Positions 1,963 to 64,000 of a DNA stretch of 64,000 bases are shown here, piece by piece. The position numbers and the translations under genes were made by a program. Positions within the stretch are counted from its first letter, which is position 1. Every line of letters starts with the position of its first letter. The DNA is from Cyanidioschyzon merolae. Its lineage: Eukaryota. Under the pieces are notes generated by a model. It ran no database searches. It saw nothing but the letters and a program-made list of their open reading frames with translations, and was not told where the DNA came from. The stretch is taken from the NCBI GenBank assembly GCA_000091205.1, contig AP006501.2, one strand, 5' to 3'.

Positions 1963-2160
1963 TCGAGTTGACACACCTCGTTAACAGGCCGCTCACAGGA
2001 GTTCCAGATGCAGTGCTGCCATCAATCCACAGTACTCTGTCATTTTTCACGATCAATCCTTTTCGAGTTGACACACCTCGTTAACAGGCCGCTCACAGGA
2101 GTTCCAGATGCGGTGCTGCCATCAATCCACAGTACTCTGTCCTTTTTCACGATCAATCCT
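1963..2160. repeat. Tandem duplication, ~92 bp x2
   Basis: 'ctcgagttgacacacctcgttaacaggccgctcacaggagttccagatgc.gtgctgccatcaatccacagtactctgtc.tttttcacgatcaatcctttt' occurs twice. Confidence 0.85.
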
Positions 2161-3359
2161 TTGCACAGCATCGAATGCTCGGCACGGAGGATGCCACACA
2201 ACCTGCTTTCTCCAGAGATCGGTATAATCGATATTCGGGCGTAACAGACACCCGGAGGCATGCCAACAAATGGTGCAAGGGTGTCAGGTCCCATGTCGAC
2301 GCCCTGAGCAGCGTACCGAGTAAAGAAGGGTATTTCGTGCGCTCCATTCGCAGAGTTCAAGAGCGTCCGAATTGCATGCGATGATGACCCTTGACACGAG
2401 TTCACGAGGCGCCGCCGAGGCTGCCAACGAGAACGCTTCTCGTACGACGAAGAGAAGCGTTCATTCGCAGATATGTTCTATGCGCTGGGATAAGAAATGA
2501 CCGACAACTCGCGTCGGATGGTGCTAGCCTGTGGTGACCAAGGACCTGGTGTCGCGCGCCGTGACTTCACTCCTGCTCTCTCGACGAGAGCGCAAAACGA
2601 ATGCAGGCATCCATTGTTTTCGATGCCCATCGACGCGTCCAGGACGGCAAAAACACATAACGAGCACGAATGTGCGCCGAATCACTTGCAAAATAAGTCG
2701 ATGAAACAAAGATGGATACACGGGATTGTGTTTGGTGCCCAGAGCAAATGCCAGATGGCGAGGAATTCGAACACGAGCGGCTTGCTATCGAGTGATTCTA
2801 TTCGAAATCATGCGTACAAGCACGGTTTGCATCGAGATCTGGACGCATCGATCAACATCTGGAAATGTCGCGTGCTTCGGGAACGTCCATCGGCTTCGTG
2901 TCTAGCGGACTTGCCTTTGGAATCAATCAGTACCCAGACTGGGCGTTGTGCTCAAGCGCTGTGGTCTCATGATGAGAAGCAAAACATTGATCAGGAGAGA
3001 AGTGAGTAGTTTTTTCTGAGTCCAAAGCACTGGTATGGTACTATTTTAGCTCTCCAGCAAGGCCACCGTGGTGTTTGTAAGCGCGGAAACCAATTTCCTT
3101 GGTAATCGGTGAAAGATAATGGTGATCCACTCTTCGATCTTCCTGAATCCAAATCGTCTAACACCAGTGAAACGGCTACTGATTTCGCTGAGCACCAGCG
3201 GACTGCGTCCAAGCGCAGACCCTGCACCTGGCTCGTCCGAGTCTCCAGTTCGAATACCATAGCGATTGCCCATAGCACCTCTGTCATCAGTGCTTGGCAG
3301 TTCACGAGTCCCGATACGACTCGCCAGACAGGGACGCGGTCCTCAAAGCTGCGACCTAC

Positions 3360-7396: not shown

Positions 7397-8266
7397 TCAC
7401 GAGGGTAGCTGTAGCGCCACGAACAGTGATGAATCCTCGTCAGCATAGAATGGAATAGGTCTTCTCATGTGACATGGGCATACATGCGAAAGTTTGGGGC
7501 TCTCCCCATCGTTAGAAGCACCAGCTTTTGCGGGATTTTTCTTCAACTGCTTCCTTTTTCTTTGGCATATCGCTGGCTTTCCATAGGTTGGTCTCTCCCT
7601 TCTCTCCATAACGATTGTCAGCAGCCGATGGATGTTGCTGGCAGCGTTCAGGTACCGATTTCGCTGCCCCGGGTCGCTTTCGATGCATGATATGTACCGA
7701 CGATAGTTGCGGTCTGCGCTTCGCTTGCCAGTTGCATCTTCTTCGTATACGGCCGCGGTGTACTCGTCGCTGCGATGAAACTTGGCTCTGATTAGGTGTT
7801 TCCACACGTATCGATCGCGCGTCCTCTTCCCAGCGTCGTCCTGTCGTACGTGATCTCTTGCCTCATCGCTCGGTAGATGCCCTTGACGTGTACAGAGGGT
7901 TCCGCACGATGCACTCGTCTGTTTCCGCACCCGGTGAGGTACACAACGATCCCGGACTTGTTCTGGACGGATCCATCGGCGAGCGTGCTGCCCGCTCCAC
8001 ATGCACAAGTGCGTGCTGCTCCATTCGATAGAGGATATGCGGTACAAGATGTTGTCCGCGATGAAACAAGTACCAGAGGAAAGCTCCAGGCTCGAGAAAA
8101 AGTCGAGCCATTTCGATCTGTCTACGTGCCTTTTGTACAACGCTATGACGCTAGCTCCGTTGGAAGCGATCACCGCGACATCCAAAAACAGAAGCGAACT
8201 ATGTATGAGCAACGAAATACCAATTGCTTTCTCTCCACGGCAGACGTCGAAACGTTGAACAGCCAT
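7397..8266 (-). CDS. Hypothetical ORF, 289 aa, no recognisable domain
   Basis: Long ORF only; overlapping plus-strand ORFs of similar size (7877..8377); no motif recognised. Confidence 0.2.
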   Translation of the reverse strand: MAVQRFDVCRGEKAIGISLLIHSSLLFLDVAVIASNGASVIALYKRHVDRSKWLDFFSSLELSSGTCFIADNILYRISSIEWSSTHLCMWSGQHARRWIRPEQVRDRCVPHRVRKQTSASCGTLCTRQGHLPSDEARDHVRQDDAGKRTRDRYVWKHLIRAKFHRSDEYTAAVYEEDATGKRSADRNYRRYISCIESDPGQRNRYLNAASNIHRLLTIVMERRERPTYGKPAICQRKRKQLKKNPAKAGASNDGESPKLSHVCPCHMRRPIPFYADEDSSLFVALQLPS

Positions 8267-8685
8267 CAGTATTCTCGAAAGTTTGCCTTTTCATTAGGAA
8301 GGTCCCGTGACCCACACGAGTCTACGAAGCCCGTGCTTCATGATCTCGCCAGTGCCGAGTGCTATGGCGCGATCTGAGCAACTCTTACGGAACGCAGTTT
8401 GTTCTGGGACTAGGGGCGGGGCGGCTGCATCAAGATATGTCCCTGGTCGCAATGGTCTCCCAGCATATCGCTTCGTGCTATCACAGGCCGTTGGTCTGTC
8501 TGCACAGCCTGCAGGCTCCCAGAATAATGAAGGATCCCGATTCTGTGACCAGTGAAGCACGCCTGGAGCCGAATACCTTAATGGTATCGCATAGCCGTTC
8601 TGTCTCCGTACTGCATATGCACCAGCGGTGTAAGCGCACCTTCAGGTGCATCACAAAAGGTTAGGTGCACGACAGAGCATACGAC

Positions 8686-8832
8686 ATAACCAGTACATCC
8701 GAGAGAAGGTCTGAAAAATGGAACTTCAAGCTAGGGTGTACTATCATGGACGCTTTCCCAAAAGCCAATATCCATCTCACAATCTAGCACCCATGGTCCA
8801 TGGAAACGGCCTGTCAAACGAAAAAAGGTCCA
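8686..8832 (+). repeat. Dispersed ~150-nt element X, copy A (non-coding; A-rich 3' end)
   Basis: Aligns with 52025-52170 and 61740-61890: shared '...atgaaa.aaccagta.atc..gag.gaag...gtaat.gaacttggagg.agggt...atggacgcTTTcccgAAAgcc.ctatcc...ggtc.atggaaac' plus a 'gaaaaaa' tail. Confidence 0.6.
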
Positions 8833-9470: not shown

Positions 9471-9709
9471 GAAACGCCGCCGTCGCGTCGTCGACCTCGA
9501 TCGCCGGCGCTCGCAGCGTTCGGAACAGGCCAACGGCCGGGAGGCGTTTCCCTGTTTGTTCCTTCGCTCGCTTGAGCGCTTGAGCGCCAGCTCGTGTTCA
9601 AGCAAGTGTACGAGCTCTGGTTTGCGTAAGTTTTCAGCATCTTCAGATCAGTATCGTGTATCGTTAGGATCGTTGAACAGCTCGATCTTGCGACCTGGAG
9701 AACTGCGTT

Positions 9710-10798: not shown

Positions 10799-12623
10799 CG
10801 GGCATGTACGCATGGAGAAACAGTGTGATTCGCTTTCCGCGCGTTTTTGCTCAAGTAGTGCCTTGACTTGTTAGGCCTTGGATACACTGCTCGTTGCAGA
10901 ATACACATACTGTACTAGTCTGGACTTGTCTGACTCGGCTAATAACGGATGTCTGACTTTCAAGTGCGGTCTCGAGAGGCAAGTTGCCGGCGACTCTATT
11001 TGGCACTATCGTTGCAGACTCTGAAGCACCGGTAACGACCTTCTCGTGTACATTTTATCCGCTTTTTTTTTGGCAAAGCCCGCGCTTCACATACCGCCCA
11101 GACCACTGAAAGCTTCGGCCGCTGAACGCTTGTTCAATGCCGTACAGCTGTTCACGGATATCGTGGAAAAGGACACACCGCATCGTCGTCGGATGGACGC
11201 CATGGTAAATTGGTGGTGGTGGTGGCGTGTACATTACCCAGTATCTCGTGCTTTATGATGGCGATGGTGATGGTGATGATGGAAGCTACACTGATCCTTT
11301 TTACATATTGGAGCAAATAACATTTGAGTCTATTTCAGGGGGAAACGTATATTTACGAAAAAGAAGCGGTTTGTCATGCGACGACACTCGCAATAAATGT
11401 CGGTTGTCGCCAGTACAGCGCCTCGAGCCTGGTTCCCGTAAACCATCTGCACTGTAAATCGTATCTGAGACCTGTGTGCATCTTGTCTCATGTGGAGATG
11501 CAAGCGAGTGCCTTGGCGTGTGGAGTGCTAACGCACGAGCCCCAACTGACTCCGCGTGGCACGGTATCCTCTGACGCTACAACCGACGCGGATACATCAT
11601 ACACATCGGATCAATGCAGAGGGCGCATGTGCGATGCCCTTTCGCACTGCACCATCCGGGATGATCCTGCTGCATTCGACTTGTGATGCACGTTGCGCTT
11701 GATCGTAGTGCGACCAATGCAGAATTACCCGCGTCGCATGCGTATATGGTGCGAGAATGCAGGGCGTCATAGGTGCTTCTCGAGGCGCACGCTTTCACTA
11801 GACGATGTGTCATGCAGGGCGACGGGGAATCACACCGCTCTGGAAGAGCGGCTGGATATCCCCCAGCGCTATTTATTGTATCCATTTAAGCGTAGAATAG
11901 TATGGGGTCGTTTCTCGAACACGAACCCAGTAGATGAAGTCTGGGTCTGTTTGAGGTTTGATCAACACCCGCCTTTGTGGACTTTTTATGCGACTGCTTC
12001 CTTTTCCTCTCCCTGACATCCTAACTTGAGTAAACCGGTCACTCCTTTTGCCTCCAGCTCCTTTATCAGCACTCTAAGGATGCTGATGATGGCGTTGATG
12101 TGCCGATTGCGCTGCTTCCGGCAGGTGCCGACTTATTTCATGTATCGGCAGACGTTACGATCTACGCTTGACTTTTCAGTTGCATCTTCGTGGGACAACT
12201 CCTCGGTGTAGCCGTCACTGCGGTGAAATTGCGCTATGGTGAGGTGTTTCCGTCTATCGACAACTAATTCTCCATTTTAGCGCGCACGATGGTGCGTCAA
12301 GACTTTTTCATAGCGCGGCACATGACCTTGATGGGAACAGAGGGCTCCGCTTGATACCCGATTCCTTTTTCGCGCTAGGTGCTATGCCCTACAATCACGG
12401 ACTTTATCGAGGTGATACACACGACAAGTGCTCTGTCCGCTGAACGTGCAGGCGATTCCATGGTATAGAGGATCTGCAGAATGCGATACTGTCCATGTTG
12501 AAGCAGACACCGGACGGAAGGCAGATGCAGGATGGAGAACAAGTTCAGAAACCTTGCATCTGTCTTCGCTTCATATGCGCAAAGCGATCATGCATGCTCC
12601 AACGAGAGCGGTCGCTGTACTGA

Positions 12624-13031
12624 TTAGAGTCCAATTCCAGGATCCGTTTCCACATAGGCGGGAGAGCATGGCGCTGGAAGACCCAAAAAGGAACTACACC
12701 AGCTCCAACGACAAGATCGTACAAGGAGTGTGCACGGCGTTTTGTTACGATACCGATAGATGAGTTTCGAACGTCCTGTACACACCATGAACTGGGGTGC
12801 AAACTTCAGAAAGTCGAGGTGGAAAAGTGCCAGCGGAGCCCTGAGGATATAAAAAAGTATGGACCGCTGATGGAAGAGCAAATGGAAAGGAGAGCGAAAG
12901 TGCGAGGATTGCTTGCGTCATTAAGTACAACCAGTGATGGCAAGAAACGTATGGAGTTTTTGAACCGAGACCTGAACGCCGCTACCAGTATACGGAGATG
13001 TGCGGTGCTGGAGAACAGACCTCCAGAGTAG
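12624..13031 (+). pseudogene. Family-B coding unit, solo copy (no ATG: AAG where the other copy has ATG; premature TAG relative to the other copy)
   Basis: ~80% nt identity to revcomp 49075-49535. In frame 0 most substitutions are synonymous third-position changes (tac/tat, aag/aaa, gag/gaa, tgt/tgc, ttt/ttc, gtt/gtc, acg/aca...). Protein 'TQKGTTPAPTTRSYKECARRFVTIPIDEFRTSCTHHELGC...EFLNRDLNAATSIRRCAVLENRPPE*'. Confidence 0.55.
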
Positions 13032-13236
13032 ACAAGAGAGAACTTTATTGGACAACCTCTCAAAGTCGAACTATATGAGAAAAAGTTGGAAGCAGTAGTA
13101 GGTGGCCGGTCCAAAAAGACAGAGGCGTCTGCACGTTAGTTGGAGATGTTTTGTCTAGCGCGGGTTTCTCGCCACTACTGTACCACTGGCAGCAACGTTT
13201 TTCTTTTGAAAGACGTTTGTTTCCAGGGGCCTCTCT

Positions 13237-21774: not shown

Positions 21775-22133
21775 ACACGCTACAGTGCTACCGCGAATGC
21801 ACTCGGTACTTCGCGCGAAATAGCGGCTTTGGCGTGTGTCGTACCTGCGAGGCAGGTTTCCGCTCTCTGGAAAGCGTCAGGAAGCGCAGGATACCGGGCA
21901 TCGATCTGCCGAGGAAAGCGTGCCAAGCCGTGGCAACTGTGATGTTCATATATAGCTCACGATGTCAATTTTCGTTCCTAAATGGGTTCCTGTCATCGAG
22001 CACTGCTCAATGGCACGACTGGGCTGTCGGCAGCCGCGCTTCCTGCGCGATCAGGTCGAGTCGTGTGAGGCATTATGATCTTGTACAAGTTGTACAGGGA
22101 ACCGTTACATGTGTCTCTATAGTCGGCCCGCTA

Positions 22134-22346
22134 GTCTGCCTGAACTGGTAAACGAGTATCATACCAGTGCACTGCTCCAACCCGGATATTTCTTTTCATC
22201 CAAAGTCTGCCTGAACTGGTAAACTAGTATCATACCAGTGCACTGCTCCAACCCGGATATTTCTTTTCATCCAAAGTCTGCCTGAACTGGTAAACGAGTA
22301 TCATACCAGTGCACTGCTCCAACCCGTATATTTCTTTTCATCCAAA
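22134..22346. repeat. Tandem repeat, 71 bp x3
   Basis: 'gtctgcctgaactggtaaacgagtatcataccagtgcactgctccaacccggatatttcttttcatccaaa' starts at 22134, 22205, 22276. Confidence 0.9.
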
Positions 22347-24950
22347 GTCTGCCGCCATCCATGAAAATACCCACACTGCGCACGAAATGATTCTCAGGAA
22401 ACTTTGCTAGGCATACAACCGATAGGCGGTTCGGGAGCACAAAAGATTTCGGGATATTAATCGAGGTGTTCACGTCTTGGTGCAGAGCGTGCTTGCACGA
22501 CTGATTGCTGGTGGATCCATGCCAGAAGACGCCGCACACACATTCCATTGCCTCGCCATCTGACGCTCGATCAGCGTGCCGTCTACAACGTCCAGCGACG
22601 GGCTCTGTTTTCCGCTCTTCTTCTCTGTCTGTTTCATCGTGCATTCGCGCTTGTGATGCGTTTATGTCGTCCTGAGCGCTTCGGTGGGAATCGATCAGTA
22701 CGGATCCCTGCATTTGTTGTGTGCTCTCGTCGAAGGAGTAGAAGTGCAGCCTTTGCACGCGCGATCGCAATTCCAGTGCCATAGACTGACATGAAACGAC
22801 GCGACCTGTAGGTCGTTTAAGTCTACAACGCATTGAATGAAGTGGCGAATGCAGGCGTCCTGCCTGGGTACAGCCGAATGAGTGTATGAGTAGAGCGCGC
22901 GCGCTCGTACGTCTGCCAACGACCGAATCGCATGAATCCGATAGATGTTCATATACGCTCTATATGAAGTGTCAAATAGCATCCACTTCTCTGCACTATG
23001 GCGCTCAGCGTTTCGGCGTAGGTCCCGCTGCCGTCATGCCACTCCATCGTATACCTCTGGACGCGTATCATGCCCGACTTGTGGCGTAGCGAGCACTGGG
23101 GAAATTCAGAAGCTTCATCTGCTTCCCATTCAGGTCCTTGCTTCAGAACACTTCAATTATCGGTGCGTAGACGAGCACGATATCCTTGGATATAGGGTAC
23201 ACGTGCGCCATCAATATTCGCTCTTCATCTACCTAGAGTGGTTGGTAGCGACTCTCGTTGCTGGGGTCGGGGTGAGGTTTCACGAGCTTCACGAAGTGCG
23301 TCCATAATGATATTCTGTCGTTCTTCACTGTCTTGGTCGTTTTCATTCCATTTCGTATCGGTAAACGAGAAGCCTTTGACAAGCTCCATCAGTTCTGCTC
23401 GCAAAGTTGCTCGAATGCCTCATAATTCCTCGTAGAGACATGCCGTAGCGCACTTTGCAAACTATTCACAACTCAAGCATCCACCGTGAAAGCATGCACC
23501 ATGATATAATACACGGAGAGCAACTCGAGCGGAAGTTTCTGGAAACCAGGGCGCCTGGATTCAGGGAGCGTGTCTTCTCTGCTCTTGACGCTTCAGTTCA
23601 GGAACATGTCACAGCGCAAAAATTCATGCGAGGCAGTTATCACGCTTCAACTGTGCTTTGAACAAGTCCTCCGCCTGGCCGCGGTCGTCGAGAGCAGAAA
23701 CATGACCTTGGACGAGGTCTAGCGACACTCGCTCTGTTTGCAATACTTCGTGCGAGCTCGGTTTCGCCTCGAGCACTGCCGCCACCAGTTCGTGATCCAC
23801 CTCCAATGACATGCCGAAAAACCGCTTTATGGATGTGAACGAGTCGTCTATTGGTTCGTGCTCGTAAACATAGGTCTCAAAGCAGAGAAGACTCCATGGA
23901 CAGGATAGAACCAGGGAGACTACGCTGGCACGAAGCACAGCTCATCGCTAGTCTGTGCTGTGCAGTCTGTGACCGCTTTTGCGTGATTGAAAGCAACGTC
24001 GTCTAAAAGCAGAACAGACTAGTTTGCAAAGACGCAGTTAAGAAGGGAGCCTCGACCAAGATTGAGGTCATGCATTATCATGCCCGCTTCACAATTGTTC
24101 ACTGATCATATCATGGCATTGCGTCTTGGGCCATTGTTGTCTTTATATGCTCCTGTCTCTTCTTTACGAACAGCGCTTTGCCCTTGGTTGTTGCGTGCCT
24201 AGTTACAGGTCTTCGCTTTATCCGGAATATACTCTCAATGAGCGAGACGAGCACCCGTCCCTCCTCTCAAACGTGTTCCGGCTTCCGTAAAACTGCGATG
24301 AAGGACTGTCCTACGAACGGCGATTTCCCATCGAGGCGCCCGTCTTCTGTCCCCATGTGTATCCCTTCAATACCAATCGTGTGAACTGTGCGGAAGCTGT
24401 ATACCGTGCGGTATCTCTTATGGTTTTTCTTAGAAAAAAAAGCGATGGACTAGAACAGATTGATCAGATAATTGTCATGTGGATCCTCTTTGACACATCC
24501 GGTTTTAGATACGCAACGTACAGGATAAGGACTAGAAGCCGAATGCTTCACCCGCCTGCTGACCATGGAATAATTTACTTGCAGAAGCAAGGCCCTTTCT
24601 CGCAAGGTAGCAGTCAGATTATCAAGTCATTCCTTGACCTTTCTCCAACTTACCGGATACGTTCCTTTTTGTTGAATACCCGTGAGAAAAACGAAGAAAA
24701 GCAAAAAACTGGCTGTCGCAGATTCTCTATGAATCACCGCTCTGAGGATAACGTTTCGGGATCGATGTGTCGAGCGAGGCATCCACCAGACGCGCGGAGC
24801 CCGGGACCCCGCAGTCGGAGGAGCGGCAACAATTCTGACCCGGGATCGTTAGATACAACGCACCGCATATCATACCTGACTTTAGGAGAATGCTCCATTC
24901 GAGAGATCTTCGGGGTGCTGAACCTGCCCCAGAAACTAGCCATAGTGCCG

Positions 24951-25080
24951 CAAGCTCCCCATTGGGCGCTTTATGGAGACAGAGTGTCATTGCCCTGGTC
25001 ATGGAGGTCACGACGCAAGCTCCCCATTGGGCGCTGTATGTAGACAGAGTGTCATTGCCCTGGTCATGGAGGTCACGACA
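24951..25080. repeat. Tandem duplication, ~65 bp x2
   Basis: 'caagctccccattgggcgct.tatg.agacagagtgtcattgccctggtcatggaggtcacgac' occurs twice. Confidence 0.85.
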
Positions 25081-26047: not shown

Positions 26048-26639
26048 TCATTTCATCATATATAGCATTTCGTTCACCAGACCCTCTATCGAATGGAACA
26101 GCTTGCGCCTGCCTATGTAGCGCACAGCATATTCACCAGGCGCGTCGCATAGAAGATGCTCTTGGTCGTAGTGCACGATATCGGGTGTGGAAACTGACGA
26201 TTTGTGCATCGGCGGGAGCATGCTGGACATGTCAAGTGCATGTACCGAGCGTTGAAGCAACCATTGACGCACCGCAGGGCAGCGCTCTAGTGATGAGGAT
26301 GTTCGATGGACACTTGGAAACACCTGACCACAGCTACGTGCCAACGCTATGAATAGCGCACCAAAATTGCATAAGAAGATGATGCTGAAAATTGCAGGAG
26401 ATGCGTAGATCCCAACCTCCTGTTGAACACGAAATGCATGGACAACAGCCAGCAACTGCGAAATCGAGCCTTGAATGCTGCCATGCACACCGTTCACAGC
26501 TTGTGAACGGTGCTGGATCGACATTAGCGCCAAGCGTCTTAAAGGCCGCGAGTAAGTGTGAGGAATAGGAAGCAGTTCCAAAAAAAGCATGCTCGCGAAC
26601 GCTGGCGTTCATGACTCGGGTCGAAAGAGACCCGAACAT
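26048..26639 (-). CDS. Hypothetical membrane protein, possibly frameshifted (two overlapping ORFs, 26334..26639 and 26048..26590)
   Basis: Two same-strand ORFs in different frames; the second has a TM-like 'FSIIFLCNFGALFIALA'. No homology recognised. Confidence 0.2.
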
Positions 26640-26835
26640 TAGCGCATATGCACGTGTTCATAGCTTCGTTCCACGCTATGCTGATATGGGTCTGAAAAGA
26701 CCCGAACTTTAGCGTACATGCCCGTGTTCATAGCTTCGTTCCACTCTGTGCTGGTATGGGTCTGAAAAGACCCGAACTTTAGCGTACATGCCCGTGTTCA
26801 TAGCTTCGTTCCACGCTATGCTGATACGGATCTAG
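26576..26835. repeat. Tandem repeat, ~70 bp x ~3.5, each unit with an inverted-repeat hairpin
   Basis: Unit 'GGGTCTgaaaAGACCCgaactttagcgtacatgcccgtgttcatagcttcgttccac.ct.tgctg.tat'; stem gggtct/agaccc. Confidence 0.85.
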
Positions 26836-33431: not shown

Positions 33432-34500
33432 TGTACAGGATCATGAGCTGTACAGTGTAGGTAGGATTCCAAAGTGGTATGAGATATTCTTACTTGTCGT
33501 TAGACGTTGGATCATGAGCTGTACAGTGTAGGTAGGATTCCAAAGTGCTATGAGATATTCTTATTTGTCGTTCGACGTTGGATCATGGGCTGTACAGTGT
33601 AGGTCGGATTCCAAAGTGCAATGAGATATTCGTACTTGTCGTTCGACGTTGGATCATGAGCTGTACAGTGTAGGTCGGATTCCAAAGTGCAATGAGATAT
33701 TCTTACTTGTCGTTCGACGTTGGATCATGAGCTGTACAGTGTAGGTCGGATTCCAAAGTGCAATGAGATATTGTCACTTGTCGTTAGACGTTGGATCATG
33801 AGCTGTACAGTGTAGGTAGGATTCCAAAGTGCTATGAGATATTCTTACTTGTCGTTCGACGTTGGATCATGGGCTGTACAGTGTAGGTCGGATTCCAAAG
33901 TGCTATGAGATATTCTTACTTGTCGTTCGACGTTGGATCATGAGCTGTACAGTGTAGGTCGGATTCCAAAGTGCTATGAGATATTCTTACTTGTCGTTCG
34001 ACGTTGGATCATGAGCTGTACAGTGTAGGTCGGATTCCAAAGTGCAATGAGATATTGTCACTTGTCGTTAGACGTTGGATCATGAGCTGTACAGTGTAGG
34101 TAGGATTCCAAAGTGCTATGAGATATTCTTACTTGTCGTTCGACGTTGGATCATGAGCTGTACAGTGTAGGTCGGATTCCAAAGTGCTATGAGATATTCT
34201 TACTTGTCGTTCGACGTTGGATCATGAGCTGTACAGTGTAGGTCGGATTCCAAAGTGCTATGAGATATTCTTACTTGTCGTTCGACGTTGGATCATGAGC
34301 TGTACAGTGTAGGTCGGATTCCAAAGTGCTATGAGATATTCGTACTTGTCGTTCGACGTTGGATCATGAGCTGTACAGTGTAGGTCGGATTCCAAAGTGC
34401 AATGAGATATTCTTACTTGCCGTTCGACGTTGGATCATGAGCTGTACAGTGTAGGTCGGATTCCAAAGTGCTATGAGATATTCTTACTTGTCGTTAGGCT
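33432..34500. repeat. Minisatellite, 71-bp unit x ~15
   Basis: Unit 'tggatcatgagctgtacagtgtaggtcggattccaaagtgctatgagatattcttacttgtcgttcgacgt' with minor variants (gtaggtAgg, aagtgCaat, attGtcac). Begins immediately 5' of the ENGase start. Confidence 0.95.
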
Positions 34501-38339: not shown

Positions 38340-38870
38340 GAAGTCAACCCTAACTTGAATATACCAGTCCGTGCCAACAAACTGCATACCTTTCATACTC
38401 CGCTGATACGAACAGATGACAGCATTGCCTCTAGCACGCGCACCAACTCTAATACATACATACATACCAGACCGTGCCAACAAACTGCATACCTTCCATA
38501 CTCCGCTGATACGAACAGATGACAGCATTGCCACTAGCACGCGCACCGACTCTCATACATACATACCAGACCGTGCCAACAAACTGCATACCTTCCATAC
38601 TCCGCTGATACGAACAGATGACAGCATTGCCACTAGCACGCGCACCAACTCTAATACATACATACATACATACCAGTCCGTGCCAACAAACTGCATACCT
38701 TCCATACTCCGCTGATACGAACAGATGACAGCATTGCCTCTAGCACGCGCACCAACTCTCATACATACATACATACCAGTCCGTGCCAACAAACTGCATA
38801 CCTTCCATACTCCGCTGATACGAACAGATGACAGCACTGCCACTAGCACGCGCACCGCCAGAGCGCCATG
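38340..38870. repeat. Tandem repeat, ~104-bp unit x ~5, with embedded (acat)n
   Basis: 'ccgtgccaacaaactgcataccttccatactccgctgatacgaacagatgacagcattgccactagcacgcgcaccaactctcatacatacatac' recurs at ~38372, 38476, 38578, 38684, 38786. Confidence 0.9.
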
Positions 38871-47455: not shown

Positions 47456-48890
47456 GCCTCAGGCTTGGCTTGCGGCAGTGTTCGGTAGCTTGGAATACGC
47501 GTCGTATCCGGTGGTACTGCGTCTCGCACACCGGCGCGCAGGTGTAACGTGCAGTAAACAGGAGTTGTACTGTGCGTCGACTGGTGCGGAGGCTGGGGGC
47601 GTCTCTCGGGGAAACCTGCTGAGGCCAGCAAAACTCTGCAGACGTACCCACGCCTGAATAGAATGGAAAGCCTTCTCTGACACTGGAGTACTCGTTATGG
47701 TATTGGTCTCTTCGCACTATCATCGACAAAAGGCTTTGCTAGCTTTCCGTGCGACGGCTTACTTTCCTTTTGTCTTACACGGGGCTTTCACGACGTCAGT
47801 CTCTTCTGTACCTCAGGATCCGTTCTCAATAGTCGAAGGATGCTAGCGGTAGGACTCACGTCCCGATGTCTCTGCTTGCGGCTGTTGTCGACGCATTTCC
47901 TGCCAGGGCCGATGTTGCGACCTACGCTCTGTTATCTATTTTTAGCTTCGCTGCAGAAAGACTCGATGCGCCCCTGGCGGCGTTTACACTTCGCTGCGGG
48001 AACATGTACCCGAGTTGTCCAAGCGTGCGCGCCTCATCCCGCTCTGAGCAGCACGCTTCGGCCCATGAAGGCTTGCTCCATCGCACGGTACGGTATGCTC
48101 CAGACGCGTACAAAGAATCCGTACCTCAGTTCACCCACCTGTTTCCGCGCCCAGTGCCGTCACGGTCGATCGTTGACTTCGTCTAGGCGAACGCCTCGGC
48201 GAGTACCCTGTCCGCTGTACTCGCAAGTGCATGCTGTCGCATTCGATAAAGGATTTGACGAGCGCTGTGTTGTCCATGATGAAACAGGAACCGGAAGCAG
48301 AATCCATGCTGGAGTAGAGATCCAGTGCGTACGATCCGTCCACGCTCCATTTGTGCTGATCGGTGGCATACGCTCTATATGAAGCGATGGCTGCAATGGC
48401 CAAAGTCCAAATCCATGAAGTTTTTCCATGGAAACAGAAGAGGCGGGAGTCTCAGGGAGCATGCTCCCCGCGTGAAACACACCATGCTGCTGTCGAATCA
48501 GGATTCATCGATGGCCTCAAGTAGAGAATCATTGATCTTTCGAAGGCAATCGCTCATTTGAAATGACAAGTTCAGGACACATTCGACAAGAGCTCGTGAC
48601 CCTCGCATCGTGATTTCATCGAAGCGCTTTGCCCTGAAAAGAGAAGATCGAAGATTTGAAACATACATGATTTGTACAGCCTACTCGTCAGGAACGTGGA
48701 AGCGTCCAGGCCTCTACGTATGACTCGGATCACGGGGTCGGTTGCCTACGAGAGCGTGTCCGAAGGCGTCGCGAATTGTCTTGATTCCGTTGACGTAACG
48801 AATTCCATCTGCAAAACGTCCAAGAAGGCACCCTTAAAAAATAAAGACTAGCAGCTGTCATGCGACCTATGCATCCGACAGCGCTCATAG

Positions 48891-49535
48891 CTATGCTTTG
48901 AATATCGCTGTTCTGAATATAAAAAACATGACATAAGATCGCAAGGTCCGAGCGACGCACGCAATTCTGTGCGTTAAGTTTATCTTGTAACAGGTGTTTT
49001 CGCGAGTCTGACCCCTCAATATCCATCGACGCGTTTGAGTGCACGACGACGACAGCGTGGATGTGTATACACCGACGTATAGACGCTTCTCAGTCTTTCT
49101 CGACTGGCCACCTACTACTGGGTTCAAGTTCTCCTTGTGCAATTTAGCCCTGTGAGGCTGCTTCTTAAAGTTGGTTCGCGTCAACCCCGGAGACCTGCTC
49201 TCCAGCATCGCACATCTCCTGATATCAAGAGCGGCGTTAAAGTCACGATACAAGAACTCTATGCGATTCTTGCCTCTGATGGAACGCACCAGTGCAGGTA
49301 GGCCTCGAACTCGTGCCCCGTTCATTGCCATTTGCTCTTGCGTCAGCGCTCCGTACTTTTCTGTATCCCCAGGGCTCCGCTGACACGTTTTCGTCTCGAC
49401 CCTCTGAAGTGTGCACCTCTGCTCATGGTGTCTATAGGACATTCGGAACTCATCTGTCGGTATTGTGACGAAACGCTTTGCGCATTCTTTATACGTTCTC
49501 GATGTTGGAGCGGGTGTACACCCGTTTTGGGTCAT
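48891..49535 (-). CDS. Family-B protein (214 aa), intact copy with ATG; function unknown
   Basis: Homolog of 12624..13031 under apparent purifying selection. 'MTQNGCTPAPTSRTYKECAKRFVTIPTDEFRMSYRHHEQRCTLQRVETKTCQRSPGDTEKYG...IEFLYRDFNAALDIRRCAMLES...'. Lies immediately downstream of the degenerate family-A copy on the same strand. Confidence 0.5.
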   Translation of the reverse strand: MTQNGCTPAPTSRTYKECAKRFVTIPTDEFRMSYRHHEQRCTLQRVETKTCQRSPGDTEKYGALTQEQMAMNGARVRGLPALVRSIRGKNRIEFLYRDFNAALDIRRCAMLESRSPGLTRTNFKKQPHRAKLHKENLNPVVGGQSRKTEKRLYVGVYTSTLSSSCTQTRRWILRGQTRENTCYKINLTHRIACVARTLRSYVMFFIFRTAIFKA

Positions 49536-49539
49536 CTAG

Positions 49540-51333
49540 CGCCCTGCTCCGAATGCGACTGCGGACCTTTAACTCCTGTCCTCCTTCAAGGCGCTCAACG
49601 CATTGAAAAAGTCGGCAAATGCTCGCTGCTTCCCGCAGTGTGGATTCGTACGCGGACGAGCCCACCGGAGCTTGGTATACTCTCTTCACAGCGCCTCCCA
49701 ATGCGCTACGCGAACTTTCGTGAATTCCCGAAAACCTCGACTGTTCGCTCCGCGGCTCGTCGCCTCGCTCATAGCTACCAGGTGCTCTTTCATATCTGCA
49801 TTCCACGAATCGATTTGCTTCCTTGCATTCATGATTCCCCGATTCTCGATAGTATCTTGCTCTCGAGAACCTCTAAAAGTCGCATGTCTTTCTGACCTTA
49901 GTTACCGTCAGTACCATCTGCCGCACGCCTGGGTACTCCGATGGTTACGATATTCGTGTTGCCGGGGTCCGCGCCAACACCCATGTCGTTCTGCGTCGCA
50001 GGACCCGCCTCATTCTGTTCTTTATGTGCATTGCCGAGAGCGATATCGAGGACTGACCAGGACGATCCGCCTCCTTGAAGCGCCTAGAGTGTACATTTAT
50101 TGTTACCCCATCGGTTTCGATCATCCCCATGAATACAGTTTTCTTGCTCTTTTTGAGACGTTTGAAATCGAAGATGCTCTTCCAGTACGTCTCCCGGTTC
50201 TCGCCGTTGAACGCCTCCCTGCTTACATCGAGCTCCGGACTGATCTCCTTCATGATGCCGTGAAGGACTCTGGAGTTGATTGAGACAATGCGCGACTTGA
50301 TCTCGCATATCGGAACGAAGTTGAAGCGCTTCTCCAGAATCGCAGCCTGCCGTCTCTCGGACTCTTGAATTCTTCGCCTATCCAGCTCTTTTTCGGCCTT
50401 GCGCTCGATCTCTCGATTCAGAAACACAAGCTATCACAGGACTAGGGTAGTACATCTTTTACCATCTGTTTTCCATATCTGATACCGTTTCTGGTGGAAT
50501 CGCCAGCCCTAGAACCGCATGCTGCGTTTGAACAGCTCCACGGATCACGGAAGATTCATTCTCTCTCCTGCGTAATTTCTACTTGTCTACAAATTCGATC
50601 TCCTGCTCAAGCTGACTATCGTTCGTGATGCCATTGATGAAGTTCCATATCCCTTTGCGAGACAGGCACGAGTAAAGTGCAAAGATGGAGCGTATCGTGA
50701 AATGTTCGGGGATCATGATCACGTGGTTCCTCAGGTTCATTAGGTACTTCAACGCTTCGTAGGTGTAAACATTCGAGTTCCGCCCCCCAGATCGAGTGCC
50801 TTCGAAGCGGTACTTGGGGCATTTTTCGTGGAGGGCATCCACCAGCTCATTTCTCCTCGACGCTTGCCCTGTCCCAAGCATCACGTACCTTATAAAGGTC
50901 TTTTCAAAAAATTCTTCCGGAACCTCGACTGTTCTGATGTCTGCGACATCGCGATACATCTCCCGCACCATACGCATCAGTCCTAAAGAAGGCTTCCAAA
51001 TACTCATCCAGTAAGACGCGACACGGTTTCTGATGGATTTTCGCAACTTTTGCCTATAAGGATGCTGGGTACGGCGTAGGAGAAAGGCTATCATTACCAT
51101 CTCGTCGAACTGTCGTCTTTCGAGCAGCTTCTGACGTTGGGCCTCCCCCTTTTGCTTCTTCGTCTTTTCCCGTTGCTATGGTGTCGGAAATGTTTTTCGT
51201 TTCTTGCTCTGGCAGCCGGCGACACCGGCCATCCGGGGTCCTTCGGCTCCGTTGCCGTTAATTTCCTTTTTCTATTCTTGAAAGCGATCCCATTTCGACT
51301 GCGTCGGCTAAAATCGCGAAAAATCACTTGCAC
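49540..51333 (-). pseudogene. Family-A ORF, degenerate copy (several frameshifts and stops)
   Basis: Fragments 51333..51094, 51100..50579 and 50427..49945 are ~55% aa identical to the plus-strand ORF 62154->64000: 'HPYRQKLRKSIRNRVASYW...EMYRDVADIRTVEVPEEFFEKTFIRYVMLGTG' vs '[19 protein letters not shown]...[32 protein letters not shown]'; '[67 protein letters not shown]' vs '...[19 protein letters not shown]'. Homology continues to ~49700, matching 63901-64000. Confidence 0.7.
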
Positions 51334-52024
51334 AAACTCGCTTGAGGGTTGAAATACGATTCAGCCGAAAGACTATACTTTGCTGGGGGCTCAACGCAAA
51401 TACATGTTGTACGTTAGAGCAACCCGCTCAGATGAAGCATCGCGTTTCCCATCAACGGCGTGATACGCGTCGTCTCTCACGCATGCAAGATAGGGAAAAG
51501 CGCGTATTGAGCGTGCTGTCTAGAACAAGGAACAGAAACGAACCACCAACTAGCAACGATGTACAAATTTCTTTCCCTCTTTACGATAAACGATAAAAGG
51601 GGGAAAGGTTTCCGCATTTTCGAAAGTTTCCTCTCTCGACGGAAGGTCCCGCGAGCCGAACGAGTCTGTCGAGCTTGCGCTCTGTGGGCACCCACCGTTG
51701 TCAGGTGCTGGGGCGAGACACGACCGCCTCCTCTGCCATAGAGTTCATTCTGGGAACAGCGGCGGTCATGCTGCAACTGGGCATCGCCCTGGTCGCAGTG
51801 GTCGCCTAGAATGTCGCTTCGCGCTGCCGCAGGCAGTAGGTCTATCAGCACAGTTTGCAGGCTCTCAGAACGATTATGAATACCGACTCCGTATCAGGTG
51901 CACCGTACATCGGTCCGATGCCCTATGCGATATAGCAGAGCTGTTCTCTATACCGTGCTGCATCGGATTCAGCGGTTTAGGCGCTACTGCGGGCGCTCAG
52001 GGCAGGCACTTGGTGCACGATAGA

Positions 52025-52170
52025 TCCTATGAAATAACCAGTATATCCCAGAGGAAGAACAAGTAATGGAACTTGGAGGTAGGGTACAGTTTAATGGACG
52101 CGTTCCCGAACCCCATTATCCATCCCCACACTCTGGTACCCAGGTTCAATGGAAACATGGGGTCATCGGA
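52025..52170 (+). repeat. Dispersed element X, copy B
   Basis: See copy A. Carries a 1-nt indel relative to A and C and a compensatory t-a->g-c pair in the hairpin; 3' tail degenerate. Confidence 0.6.
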
Positions 52171-61266: not shown

Positions 61267-61739
61267 ACTCGTACGCTAGTCAATATTTTTGTTCAAGTAT
61301 ATCTCGCGCTTATTTCGTGCCACTTCAGCGTTCCACGTCGTCTCTAGTGCACGCTCCCTTTCGTGCTTCACTTCGTTCCGGAAACAGGTACCAGGGCACG
61401 CGCACTCGGAGGGTGCCGTTCGCTGGGCCGCCAACCTCGCCACCGTGTGTCTCCACCCCAAAATTTCGACGATGCAATGCCCGTTTTCGAAAAAGTACCT
61501 GCCTAAGGTTCCACCTTCGAAGCGTCACCGTCTCGAAAACGCAAAAGCGCACGCTTCCGCAGTGCGCATTCTAGCGCGCGGCAAAGTGCGAAAGCAACAC
61601 GCATCCGGCGGCGGCGTGTCTACACGCATCCGGCGCTGGGATGGCGGGATCGCTGCGAGCACGCATGCTGCAAGCGTAGCGGCGCTATAGGCGCCGCTGC
61701 TGTCGCTATCGGCAAGCACTAGGCACACGCAATAGCACG

Positions 61740-61890
61740 TATGAAACGACCAGAATATCTGAGAAGAAGTACAGGTAATCTAACTTGGAGGAAGGTGCTT
61801 CATCATGGACGCTTTCCCGAAAGCCACTATCCTTTCCGAATTCTGGAATCCATGGTCAATGGAAACGTCTTGTTAATGAAAAAAACGAAT
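61740..61890 (+). repeat. Dispersed element X, copy C (~265 bp upstream of the family-A ATG)
   Basis: See copy A. Shares the A-rich 3' end 'atgaaaaaaacg' with copy A. Confidence 0.6.
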
Positions 61891-62153
61891 CGCGCTCGGT
61901 GGGCGCACCTGGGAGATCAGGCAGTCAACTGACGCGATGCGCGTGCCGTTGTTGAAGGGAAACTCATTTGGGATCACGAGCGTGTTGTTCAGCTGTAAAA
62001 TGTTGGATTTCCGTTCAGGTCGTAGCCAAGTAAAGTTTTTCAGTTTATTTTTGTTTCAAACTTCAAACACGTTTAGTCAAGTGTTTTTTCGCAGTATATA
62101 ACAGCAGGGCTCAAAGAGCGTTCTTTTTCAAAGAAACTAATAAAAGGAAAGTT

Positions 62154-64000
62154 ATGAAAAACCAAGTCCACGATCCTGGAGCCCCAGTGTCGCCGGCTGC
62201 CAGAAAAAAAACAAAAAACAGTGCCGAGTCCAGAAGAAAAGGAAGAGAAGAAGGACCGAAAGGGGGAGGCCCTACGTCGAAGGCGGCACGAGAGACGACT
62301 GTACGACGAGGTGGTGGTGAAAACCTTTCTTCTTAAACTTATCCAGGATCCCTATAGGAAAAAGTTGCGAGGCGCTATCGAAAAACGTGTCGACACGTAC
62401 TCCAAGAATATTGTCAAGGCGTCGTCGGGACTGATGCATTTAGCGAGGGAGATGTACGAAGACGTCGCGCACATGGAAACAGTCGAGATTCCAGACGAGT
62501 TCTTCGACAAGACCTTTATTCAACACCTGATGCTTGGTACAGGGGAAACGCGGAGGGAAAATGAGCGGGTGCACGCCCTCCACGAAAACTTCGCGGGATT
62601 CCGCTTCGAGGGTAATCGATACAAGGGTGACTCGAATATGTACGGCTATGGGGCGATGAAGTACCTCACGAACCTGAAGAACCATTCGATAGTGAACCTC
62701 GAACGTTACATGATACGCGCCTTGTTTGCACTCTACCCGGGCATCTGTCCGAAAGGAATATCAGCGATTATCAATGGCATCACGCACGATCGCAAGCGTG
62801 AAGATGACATCGAATTTGTCGACAAGAAGGCATCAAAAGTGAGCACGAATGAAGCTTCTGTAATCCGTGCGGTTATACAAGAGCACCGTGCGGTACTGGG
62901 GCTGGTGAGTCCAACAGACAAGATATCAGAGTCGAAAAAGGATAAGGAAAGATACTATCGCCTCATCCTGTGCTATTTCGTGTTTCTGGACCGAGAGCTC
63001 GAACGCAAGTCGGAGATGAACCTGAGTGAAGAGACAAATGAAGAGTACGAGAGACGGAAGGCTGTCCTAATGGGGAAGCGCTTCAACGTGGTTCCAATGT
63101 CCAATATCAAGTCACATTATGTGACTACCGACTCCAGAGTCCTTTACGGCATCATGAGGGAGATCAGTCCCGAATTCAATGTTAGTGTGGAGGGCTTCAC
63201 CGGCGAAAACCGGGAGACGCACTGGAAGAATATCTTCGATTTCAAACGTCTCAAAACGAGCAAACAAAATGTATTCACCGGGATGATCGAAGCCGATGGA
63301 GTAGCCTTGTGTGTACACAATCGGCGATTGAAGAAAGTTCGTCCAACTCCGCCTTCGGCTGCGCCCGTCATGAAGGATGAAGAAAACAAAGAGGAGGATC
63401 CTGTGACGCAGGAGGAGCAGGATGACGACCTTGTCGTTGGCGTGACGAAGGATGAAGAAAACAAAGAGGAGGATCCTGTGACACAGGAGGAGCAGGATGA
63501 CGACCTTGTCGTTGGCGTGACGAAGGATGAAGAAAACAAAGAGGAGGATCCTGTGACACAGGACATGCATGATAACGATTTTGTCGTTGGCGTGACGAAG
63601 GATGAAGATGAGAAGGAGGCGAGTCCTGCGACGCAGGAGGTGGAGAATAACGACTTTATGGTTGACGCGACGAAGCATGAAGAAAAGAAGGAGGCGGATC
63701 CTGCGACCCACAAAGTGCAGGATAACGACTTTGTCGTTGGCGCGGACCCTGGGAATACGAATATCATAACCATCGCTGCTCCCAAGCGTGCGGAAGATGG
63801 TACTGATGGTAACTTACGTCAGAAAGACATGCGTCTGTTGAGGTTCTCGAGAGCGAGATACTATCGAGAATCGGGAATCATAAATGCAAGGAAGAAAATC
63901 GAGACTTGGAATTCAGGAATGAAAGAGCACCTGGAAGCTTCGAGCGAGGTGACGAGCCGAGGAGCGGACTTTGAAGCTTTTCGGAAATTCACGGAAGTTC
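62154..64000 (+). CDS. Family-A ORF, apparently intact, running off the window. Short 5' ORF (frame 0, 62154..62336) followed by the main ORF in the +1 frame from ~62311. Putative transposase-like or unknown multi-copy protein.
   Basis: Main frame open from 62158 to the window end (>600 codons) with no ATG before 62436. Strong synonymous-biased divergence versus the 50-51 kb copy. Contains an internal 75-bp (25-aa) acidic tandem repeat x5. Confidence 0.6.
63373..63750 (+). repeat. In-frame coding tandem repeat, 75 bp (25 aa) x5
   Basis: '[25 protein letters not shown]' repeated inside the family-A ORF; absent from the 50-51 kb copy. Confidence 0.85.

Follow-up and report, generated by a model that had tools for sequence, protein, structure and literature searches.

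What Fanzor proteins do biochemically was worked out in 2023-2024. A C4 zinc ribbon is typical of both TnpB and Fanzor, and many Fanzor1 genes sit beside a transposase ORF such as that of Tc1/mariner. Other Fanzor features include Gly or Pro at the canonical RuvC-II position with an alternative Glu approximately 45 aa away, an NLS at the N terminus, and a structured noncoding RNA at the 3' end (PMC10530073). A Fanzor1 element of Cyanidioschyzon merolae, CMe-1A (CMe-1), which encodes a 734-aa protein, has been described (Bao & Jurka 2013, Mobile DNA 4:12, PMC3627910). According to that description, CMe-1A is approximately 3 kb long and is present in approximately 150 copies that are about 80% identical to the consensus, with some ORFs intact; no TIRs were reported, TSDs were undetermined, and the family was left unclassified. 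The 5' 635 bp of CMe-1A are 95% identical to the element TE-N2_CMe (PMC3627910). The family has thus been in print since 2013 together with its consensus, copy number, and peculiarities (absence of TIRs, a shared 5' module, and old but partly intact ORFs), and a search of the literature on Fanzor in red algae and on DUF8286 returned nothing useful apart from that paper.

The DNA analyzed here (the window) is a single stretch of 64,000 nucleotides. A sequence-only reading had proposed that positions 48891 to 51333 hold an uncharacterised two-gene element, with a long ORF (A) and a short ORF (B), each also found elsewhere in the window. The 3169-bp, Repbase-type CMe-1A consensus (supplement 2 of PMC3627910) was compared with the window by blastn. 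Consensus positions 13-3092 matched window positions 52156-49071 (minus strand) with 80.05% identity over 3118 bp, so that CMe-1A spans 3086 bp of the window at the degenerate copy. Further matches were found between consensus positions 648-2451 and window positions 61891-64000 (plus strand; 84-91.5%), between 2614-3166 and 12664-13212 (plus strand; 89.5%), and between 12-611 and 8808-8208 (minus strand; 75.7% over 606 bp), the last being a separate, TE-N2_CMe-like 5' module. Because the published description fits in copy age, size, lack of TIRs, the TE-N2_CMe-like 5' part, and direct alignment, the window repeats belong, with very little room for doubt, to CMe-1A, a family of old DNA transposable elements of approximately 3.2 kb that lack TIRs, from the thermoacidophilic red alga C. 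merolae or a very close relative. Judged by these alignments, at 80-91%, the element was already known and is not uncharacterised. The family has 2562 representatives at an E value of <= 1e-3, and a family profile was built on 39 diverse members. The copies and parts identified in the window are as follows.

2193..2898, plus strand: old Fanzor1 relic, C-terminal third, visible at the protein level only (family HMM E = 1e-16; tblastn with P0001, 33-40% identity)
8208..8808, minus strand: solo 5' module, TE-N2_CMe-like, without a recognisable Fanzor ORF (consensus 12-611)
12664..13212, plus strand: 5'-truncated CMe-1A copy, comprising the last ~165 codons and the complete 3' tail (89.5% to consensus; the earlier solo B)
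22420..23628, minus strand: old Fanzor1 relic, HMM positions 241-597 (family HMM domains, E = 4e-5 to 3e-3)
49071..52156, minus strand: near full-length CMe-1A copy, pseudogene (blastn to consensus; the earlier degenerate A plus B)
51534..52156, minus strand: 5' noncoding module of the 49071..52156 copy, inner edge approximate (equivalent to the first 635 bp of CMe-1A, also the separate element TE-N2_CMe)
49152..51175, minus strand: remains of the Fanzor1 coding region in the degenerate copy (family HMM domains, E = 2e-35, 5e-30, and 3e-56)
61711..61873, minus strand: inverted 5'-module fragment adjoining the 5' side of the second copy (consensus 6-166, 84%)
61891..64000, plus strand: second CMe-1A copy, ended by the window edge (consensus alignment; family HMM E = 7e-111; the earlier A copy at 62154)
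63366..63744, plus strand: five tandem 75-bp units (25-aa acidic repeat) just before RuvC-I of the second copy (self-blastn, 80-86% between units)

The window copies resemble the published CMe-1A in architecture, lack of TIRs, age, the 5' module shared with TE-N2_CMe, and the 3' end (...GAAAGGCG). They differ from it in three respects. The copy at 61891-64000 has five tandem acidic units where the consensus has a single one (consensus unit 2117-2193 matches five times by blastn), and unit number also differs among other copies of the element. One copy is joined to the inverted 5'-module fragment, an arrangement also present in metagenome loci L023 and L026. The two older relics have no DNA-level alignment to the consensus, and are themselves related (2568-2672 and 22746-22642 are 77% identical by self-blastn). 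Downstream of the solo 5' module, there was only a marginal family HMM match (7577-7660, E = 0.078).

As sequenced, no copy in the window encodes the full protein: the near full-length copy is a frameshifted pseudogene, the solo B copy a 3' fragment, and the third has a 614-codon frame that is off its ATG and runs past the window end. In the pseudogene, tblastn finds the ORF in five pieces that lie in different frames, ACG stands in place of the ATG start codon, and the final 77 bp of the element, terminal hairpin included, are missing, with tail homology ending at 49071. The extent first given to this copy (51333-48891) therefore needed correction to 52156-49071, as the last 180 nt of ORF B (49071 to 48891) lie outside the repeat. 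Similarly, the start assigned to the second A copy, at 62154, is an ATG that does not share the frame of the long ORF, owing to one extra A in an A-run relative to the consensus; the frame is open from 62158 to 64000. The solo B copy is real, but its bounds are 12664-13212 rather than 12624-13135, with sharp homology edges on both sides, and it carries an in-frame stop. The solo 5' module, the inverted fragment, and both relics were missing from the original list of copies.

Self-blastn showed that the repeats reported from the sequence alone are real and far beyond chance. Positions 50104-51228 and 63303-62184 share 74.5% identity over 1137 nt (E = 1e-131), 49712-49990 and 64000-63724 share 84.6%, and 12664-13033 and 49549-49180 share 75.1% over 374 nt (E = 5e-42). 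The amino acid identity of approximately 55% claimed for the A copies agrees with the 52-64% measured per HSP, while the B copies are similar as claimed but at 75% rather than approximately 80% nucleotide identity. A and B do not represent two genes but the N-terminal and C-terminal portions of a single 734-aa Fanzor1 ORF, and they are contiguous in the published consensus as well as in the degenerate copy and every related copy.

The complete element consists of approximately 900 bp of noncoding 5' sequence, the single intron-less ORF, and a noncoding 3' tail of approximately 60 nt; the first ~635 bp of the 5' part also circulate as the short element TE-N2_CMe. The proposed bias toward synonymous change was borne out, with a median pairwise dN/dS of 0.43 (range, 0.26 to 0.81) across copies with long ORFs, and the description as a multicopy, transposon-borne protein-coding unit holds, with purifying selection placed in the past. 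Old copies (about 80% to the consensus), some of them with long ORFs, and a dN/dS of <1 could also be expected of a lineage-specific host gene family of domesticated Fanzor-derived genes, the other option left by the sequence-only reading. However, an ORF of >= 650 aa was found in just one of 43 full-length copies, the other 42 being broken, and many copies are 5' truncated, internally deleted, or arranged as head-to-head fragments. The copies also have sharp edges in common and unrelated flanks, the 5' module stands alone elsewhere, and no synteny was found between the window flanks and the 71 related loci identified in hot-spring metagenomes. A host gene family is thus very improbable, and of the two options it is the mobile element that stands. 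For annotation, this means at least five copies or relics in 64 kb, none of them a host gene.

The ORF formed by A and B encodes a Fanzor1, the eukaryotic homologue of the bacterial TnpB/OMEGA nuclease. Both the profile searches and the structure prediction that had been suggested as checks were run. A Pfam scan of the window's own A and B translations and a single-sequence phmmer search of PDB sequences gave no match. With the family profile, by contrast, PDB sequences returned only Fanzor1 chains (PpFz, 1.7e-23; SpuFz, 2.9e-14; GtFz, 6e-11). Pfam Cas12f1-like_TNB was matched by 21 of the 39 family members (best E = 9.6e-11), although P0001 itself scored only E = 0.23. An AF2 model of P0001 (pLDDT, 79.9; pTM, 0.77) was disordered at residues 381-470, the acidic-repeat region (pLDDT < 50). 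When this model was searched against the PDB with Foldseek, the top seven matches were all Fanzor1 (E = 2e-17 to 2e-13; target TM up to 0.74), and at E <= 1e-3 only Fanzor1 was found, with Cas12 and TnpB weakly behind. In the protein, a basic segment at the N terminus, visible in the consensus and in the window, and helical REC/WED parts are combined with a RuvC nuclease that is split.

The RuvC-I GADPG and RuvC-III RDFNAA motifs are present. Columns invariant across the 39 diverse members include D484 (RuvC-I), G623, E656, and R724/D725/N727/A729/N731 (RuvC-III). G623, in AYGAG or AFGAGR, lies at the canonical RuvC-II position and is followed by two conserved Glu residues, namely, the invariant E656 of KEC (+33) and the Glu of VDEF (about +50), which aligns with the DEY/DEF of SpuFz/PpFz. 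In the window, the motifs were located as follows.

12759-12776, plus strand: DEFRTS, 12664..13212 copy
12966-12992, plus strand: RDLNAATSI (RuvC-III), 12664..13212 copy
about 13156, plus strand: ORF stop codon TAG, 12664..13212 copy
49952-49975, minus strand: GADPGNTN (RuvC-I), degenerate copy
49539-49556, minus strand: AFGAGR, degenerate copy, with Gly at the canonical RuvC-II position
49479-49493, minus strand: YKECA, degenerate copy
49437-49454, minus strand: DEFRMS, degenerate copy
49413-49430, minus strand: HHE..C, degenerate copy
49221-49247, minus strand: RDFNAALDI (RuvC-III), degenerate copy
63739-63762, plus strand: GADPGNTN (RuvC-I), second copy

The solved Fanzor1 structures (SpuFz1 of Spizellomyces punctatus, 8GKH and 9CEU-9CEZ; PpFz1 of Parasitella parasitica, 9CF0-3; GtFz1 of Guillardia theta, 9CER-T) share their fold with CMe-1 (Foldseek E = 2e-17; target TM, 0.72 to 0.74), as well as the RuvC-I DPG, RuvC-III RD..A..N, DE(F/Y)xTS, and TDG motifs, yet sequence identity is only 12-15%. 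CMe-1 also differs in its long disordered acidic insert before RuvC-I and in its zinc ribbon. The CxxC...CxxC pattern between RuvC-II and RuvC-III is absent in the CMe-1 lineage, the first CxxC being replaced by HH-x3-C-x10-C. Because both homology and fold place the protein in Fanzor1, the absent C4 ribbon points to a TNB domain that has diverged and does not count against membership. Given the HH-x3-C-x10-C site and the weak TNB score of P0001, activity in this clade is not assured. A C-x-HH-x3-C motif had been read from B (SCTHHELGC), but the consensus has SYTHHELGC and the first Cys is not conserved.

The segment FTGMIE(A/T)DGV of A had been likened to the first catalytic-Asp strand of a DDE transposase of the PIF/Harbinger type. 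It is indeed a conserved segment, but it aligns with the TDG of the SpuFz, PpFz, and GtFz Fanzor1 proteins; the RuvC-I catalytic Asp lies downstream, in GADPGNTN (~50 aa further in the degenerate copy). A pairing of a DDE transposase (A) with an accessory zinc-finger protein (B) has nothing beyond the loose by-eye likeness of ETDGV to commend it and has scarcely any probability left, since A and B are one ORF, Pfam scans of the window pieces and of the 39 family members revealed no DDE family, and the profile and fold searches identified a TnpB-like RuvC nuclease, giving only Fanzor1 at E <= 1e-3. The CMe-1A alignment, the Fanzor1 profile, and the Fanzor1 fold thus refute the two-protein reading. 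The more general idea of an RNase-H-like nuclease was right, because RuvC is an RNase-H-like fold.

Consistent with the failure to find TIRs, LTRs, or TSDs by eye, none were found here, and in 32 copies a comparison of the 5' end with the 3' end revealed no inverted matches; the original describers likewise found no TIRs. The 5' regions comprise several subfamily modules, while the 3' edge is sharp, with a subterminal hairpin and only a weak G/T-rich bias in the 3' flanks. Copies truncated at the 5' end but intact at the 3' end are in strong excess. The lack of TIRs, this truncation pattern, and a conserved subterminal hairpin followed by a few G/T-rich bases would all fit a nonautonomous Helitron2-like rolling-circle element carrying a captured Fanzor1, in which the hairpin would be a RepHel transposition signal and not a guide RNA. 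CRe-1, 2, and 3 of Chlamydomonas reinhardtii, which are Helitron2 borne, likewise combine a Fanzor1 cargo with no TIRs, a 3' hairpin, and frequent 5' truncation with intact 3' ends (Bao & Jurka 2013, PMC3627910). In contrast to CRe-1, 2, and 3, neither Helitron termini nor a link to RepHel could be shown for CMe-1A: none of about 70 copies has an adjoining ORF for RepHel or another transposase, the 5'-T(C) and CTRR-3' ends are lacking, the 5'/3' comparison gave no asymmetric terminal inverted repeat, and the original authors assigned the family to no class (PMC3627910). Rolling-circle mobility is therefore unlikely; it concerns only the mode of movement and is compatible with the identification as CMe-1A and Fanzor1. 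While no associated transposase was found for CMe-1, the distant family member P0028 lies just downstream of a Tc1/mariner transposase ORF.

Like CMe-1, TnpB/OMEGA of IS200/IS605 (e.g., ISDra2 TnpB, 8H1J) has a RuvC core, no TIRs, and subterminal hairpins, and by analogy a guide RNA would be expected at the 3' end. The structural match to ISDra2 TnpB is weak (Foldseek E = 0.04), and CMe-1 is unlike TnpB in its much longer N-terminal half, its Gly in place of the canonical RuvC-II Glu, the lack of a TnpA partner, and its eukaryotic nuclear host. The complete right end in the window was folded as a candidate guide RNA.

13088..13217, plus strand: candidate omega-RNA (fRNA) scaffold and right-end region (RNA fold)

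This region folds at -48 kcal/mol (z = -3.5; none of 200 shuffles folds as well) into a structure that is closed by a helix (13093-13102 with 13172-13180), contains internal hairpins, and has a terminal hairpin (13194-13217). In seven of the eight copies folded, the 130-nt tail gave z = -3 to -5, with one shared architecture. Most copies keep the terminal hairpin despite stem sequences that differ between subfamilies, although on its own its mean z relative to shuffled sequences was just -1.7. Covariation in the hand-drawn 3' structure was not significant (52 of 500 shuffles reached the observed pairing), RNAalifold on a 379-column 3' alignment returned an essentially flat consensus (-1.25 kcal/mol), and a brute-force scan for covarying stacks returned only G-U-rich noise. 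Conservation of the 3' tail (0.84) was not above that of other noncoding parts of the element (0.78-0.83), third codon positions near the 3' end of the ORF showed no extra constraint, and no Rfam family reached its gathering score anywhere in the window. By analogy and folding stability, the 130-nt tail would suit a guide (omega) RNA.

From studied Fanzor1 and TnpB systems, we infer by analogy an omega RNA, RNA-guided cleavage, and a mode of mobility for CMe-1. A transcript spanning the 3' part of the ORF plus the tail would fold as the scaffold (omega RNA or fRNA), and its 3' extension into flanking DNA would act as the guide. The ribonucleoprotein may then cut matching DNA beside a short target-adjacent motif, which would aid persistence or spread of the element, whereas transposition itself would presumably need another enzyme in trans. 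It is conceivable, if a long shot, that the CMe-1 lineage holds an active Fanzor1 in a thermoacidophilic eukaryote, with the unusual HH-x3-C-x10-C in place of the C4 ribbon and a compact scaffold in which the final ~70 nt of the ORF join the ~60-nt tail. The same speculation holds that the excess of 3'-anchored, 5'-truncated copies could reflect nuclease-triggered, copy-from-right-end repair (homing by incomplete strand synthesis) and not a classical transposase. If true, nuclease-triggered copying would be the mobility mechanism of a family that has stood unclassified since 2013. The window offers a lead, namely, a Fanzor1 lineage from an acidic hot-spring alga whose guide RNA, target motif, and mobility were not found worked out in the literature searched.

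An exact-protein look-up of the ABCG gene in the window found nothing on record. A trypanosomatid host was considered and rejected, because gene strands alternate in the window. The window also contains a DHFR-TS gene that points to the Cyanidiophyceae, where its best named relatives lie, at only 68-71% identity.

Self-comparison of the window bore out the repeats proposed in the sequence-only reading, with corrected boundaries and gene model. Positions 50104-51228 matched 63303-62184 at 74.5% identity over 1137 nt, 49712-49990 matched 64000-63724 at 84.6%, and 12664-13033 matched 49549-49180 at 75.1%. The long-ORF repeat (A) and the short-ORF repeat (B) had been taken for two genes. In a three-frame translation of the degenerate copy, A runs directly into B, frameshifts and stops aside, and 62158-64000 is open for 614 codons, up to the window end; A and B thus belong to a single coding unit. 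P0001, a relative of 752 aa, covers both. The two copies of A share 52-64% protein identity, segment by segment.

One Fanzor1 family, CMe-1A, is listed for Cyanidioschyzon merolae (Bao and Jurka 2013, PMC3627910), with about 150 copies at about 80% identity each to a ~3-kb consensus (3169 bp, encoding a 734-aa protein; PMC3627910 supplement). CMe-1A has no TIRs, its TSDs were not determinable, its classification is given as unknown, and some copies carry an intact Fanzor1; its 5' 635 bp match a distinct element, TE-N2_CMe (~70 copies), at 95% identity (PMC3627910). The consensus aligned to the following segments of the window:

52156-49071, minus strand: near full-length (degenerate) copy, consensus 13-3092, 80.05% over 3118 bp
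61891-64000, plus strand: "intact" copy, consensus 648-2451, 84-91.5%, with the 75-bp unit 2117-2193 five times
61873-61711, inverted: 5' fragment, consensus 6-166, 84%
12664-13212, plus strand: 5'-truncated (solo) copy, consensus 2614-3166, 89.5%
8808-8208, minus strand: TE-N2_CMe-like solo, consensus 12-611, 75.7%

By these alignments the repeats are assigned to the already known CMe-1A family, and their divergence from the consensus is at the level published for C. merolae copies, which makes the host C. merolae or a very close relative of it. Of the earlier description, a two-gene element proposed as an uncharacterised mobile element or lineage-specific gene family, the mobile-element family stands; the two genes and the lack of characterization do not.

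The window's own translations gave no matches in Pfam or in PDB sequences. Using a word-indexed search, 27 close relatives were identified (51-81% identical, all from JGI metagenomes, many tagged PF26935/DUF8286), together with one distant, full-length relative, P0028 (613 aa, 28% identity). An exhaustive HMMER search from a small alignment returned 2562 cluster representatives (E <= 1e-3), with a typical length of about 600 aa, from which 39 diverse members were picked and aligned as a family profile. Against all PDB sequences this profile matched three proteins only, the Fanzor1 proteins of Parasitella parasitica (E = 1.7e-23), Spizellomyces punctatus (E = 2.9e-14), and Guillardia theta (E = 6.1e-11), in alignments spanning the 'TDG' strand, 'DPG' (RuvC-I), 'DE(F/Y)xTS', and 'RD..A..N' (RuvC-III). 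In Pfam, 21 of the 39 members matched Cas12f1-like_TNB (best E = 9.6e-11). An AlphaFold2 model of P0001 on the 39-member alignment (mean pLDDT 79.9, pTM 0.77) was compared with the PDB using Foldseek; the best seven matches were all Fanzor1 structures (E = 2e-17 to 2e-13, target-normalised TM up to 0.74), with Cas12 and TnpB ranking below them at E around 1e-2. By profile and fold the protein is not a DDE transposase, of which a segment of A had been reminiscent.

Columns invariant across the 39 members include D484 (GADPG), G623 ('AYGAG'), E656 ('KEC'), and R724-D725-x-N727-x-A729-x-N731. In Fanzors the canonical RuvC-II position is occupied by Gly or Pro, with an alternative Glu some 45 residues further downstream; an NLS lies at the N-terminus and, at the 3' end of the element, there is a structured non-coding RNA (PMC10530073). 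In the present family Gly occupies that position, and E656 and the 'VDEF' Glu are both candidates for the catalytic residue. The canonical C4 zinc ribbon is absent from the CMe-1 lineage, where HH-x3-C-x10-C replaces it. The 'SCTHHELGC' (C-x-HH-x3-C) noted earlier in B corresponds to this site in the solo copy, and its first Cys is Tyr in the consensus.

None of the window copies is without defect or truncation. The degenerate copy has ACG for its ATG start codon and lacks the final 77 bp, including the terminal hairpin. The "intact" copy has an additional A in the A-run after codon 16, a homopolymer error or else a true frameshift, and its ATG (62154) and the long ORF are consequently in different frames; the C-terminal third lies beyond the window end. 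The solo copy is a fragment with a stop in frame. At 63366-63744 (plus strand) the 75-bp unit (25 aa, acidic), single in the consensus, occurs five times. The repeated segment is the strand that leads into RuvC-I; disorder is predicted for it, and the number of units varies among copies from 1 to at least 6. The family HMM, run on a six-frame translation, located further remnants:

2193-2898, plus strand: older Fanzor1 relic
22420-23628, minus strand: older Fanzor1 relic
7577-7660, minus strand: marginal Fanzor1 relic, E = 0.078

The first two have no DNA-level alignment to the CMe-1A consensus and are visible only by the family HMM; they are 77% identical to each other (2568-2672 versus 22746-22642), which suggests a second, older subfamily. 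In a 289-aa ORF at 7397-8266 (minus strand), downstream of the solo 5' module at 8808-8208, the stretch NRYLNAASNIHRLL resembles a degenerated RuvC-III motif; the family HMM scores this ORF at E = 0.078 only.

Relatives were identified at 71 loci, several per sample, when metagenome contigs were scanned; the flanks of none were syntenic with the window. The copies have about 2.7 kb of core sequence in common, and its 3' edge is very sharp (one reference locus covered by all others). In aligned 3' ends the ORF stop is TAG, followed by a ~60-nt non-coding tail ending '...GAAAGGCG(TT)', beyond which flanks are unrelated among copies. In about 30 independent copies '...GGCGTT' is followed by ~7 nt rich in G/T and poor in A (GATGGTG, TGGTGTG, TGTTGTC, TGTTTCC; in the window, 13218-13224), reflecting either an element a few bases longer than the published consensus or a weak target preference. 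On the 5' side, the sequence shared by all copies begins about 330 nt ahead of the first P0001 residue in the alignment, and further upstream copies fall into classes reaching about -900 to -960. One such 5' module (window 51787-52156) recurs elsewhere in the window and the loci, sometimes inverted and sometimes alone. In agreement with the failure to find TIRs by eye, no inverted repeat was found between the two ends of 32 full-length copies. Only one of 43 full-length copies has an ORF of at least 650 aa, and the longer ORFs gave a median pairwise dN/dS of 0.43 (range, 0.26 to 0.81). Such values mark a transposon family in which selection acted on the active lineage and inserted copies decay.

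Many copies have an intact 3' end and a truncated 5' end, and some are internal-deletion derivatives or head-to-head fragments. Of the ORF, L025 (4764-6163) and L026 (8694-10093) keep only the final third (starting near residue 499), directly preceded by the 5' module and leader and followed by the 3' tail, an arrangement resembling a non-autonomous short form with both ends kept. Paired partial copies (~residues 433-752), head to head and overlapping by about 45 bp, recur across several metagenomes (L047, L048, L060, L062, and L064; e.g., L047 2-630, minus, and 585-1544, plus). In L002, a short contig of the highly fragmented NCBI assembly GCA_013573125.1, a Tc1/mariner-type DDE_3 transposase ORF (95-985) precedes P0028 (1029-2870) by 44 nt.

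Folding was assessed on 130 nt comprising the last ~70 nt of the ORF and the tail (13088-13217 in the solo copy). This region was more stable than dinucleotide shuffles in seven of eight copies (z = -3.0 to -5.0), and the stable folds have one architecture: a closing helix CAGUAGUGG/CCACUACUG, internal hairpins, a short linker, and a 10-bp terminal hairpin. The latter is retained across subfamilies with differing stems (e.g., CGUCGUUCGA/UCGAACGGCG versus AACGUUUUUC/GAAAGGCGUU) and is replaced by quite different ones in L032 (an unrelated perfect hairpin) and L005 (another one). Against an omega-RNA role, covariation across the whole proposed structure was not above shuffles, RNAalifold gave no consensus structure, the tail was no more conserved than other non-coding parts of the element, and conservation at third codon positions was no higher close to the 3' end than elsewhere in the ORF. 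From homologous systems and folding stability, we infer that this 130-nt region is a candidate omega (guide) RNA. Instead or additionally, the terminal hairpin could be the signal of a Helitron-like or IS200/IS605-like mechanism that moves CMe-1A. The 3'-anchored truncation resembles that of the Helitron2-borne Fanzor1 elements of Chlamydomonas (PMC3627910); however, no Helitron-like transposase or termini were found. The origin of so many 3'-anchored copies in a family without TIRs or transposase is of mild interest, as are a possible activity of the lineage, its putative guide and target motif, and the zinc-ribbon replacement.

Elsewhere the window (about 55% G+C) has eukaryotic housekeeping genes that lack introns and alternate in strand, including Tfb4, a mitochondrial carrier, GLE1, GH85, a bifunctional DHFR-TS, a Mot1-like SNF2 ATPase, an ABCG transporter, and kinases. 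A protein 100% identical to the DHFR-TS was found in metagenomes only, and its best named relatives are from Cyanidiococcus yangmingshanensis (71%) and then Galdieria partita (50%), placing the host in Cyanidiophyceae. An 85-bp tandem array (8853-9454, plus strand; about 7 units, 93-95% identical) makes a repetitive ORF (8885-9583) adjoining the TE-N2_CMe-like solo, and between the GH85 and DHFR-TS genes there is a large tandem array of a 71-bp unit (33438-34497; about 15 copies with about 96% identity). Smaller arrays occur at 38361-38857, 22133-22353, 26618-26833, 1963-2162, and 24949-25079. Short repeats that are 73-76% identical (7706-7803 versus 12154-12251, and 48136-48304 versus L004 1475-1644) lie near element copies, outside the CMe-1A consensus.
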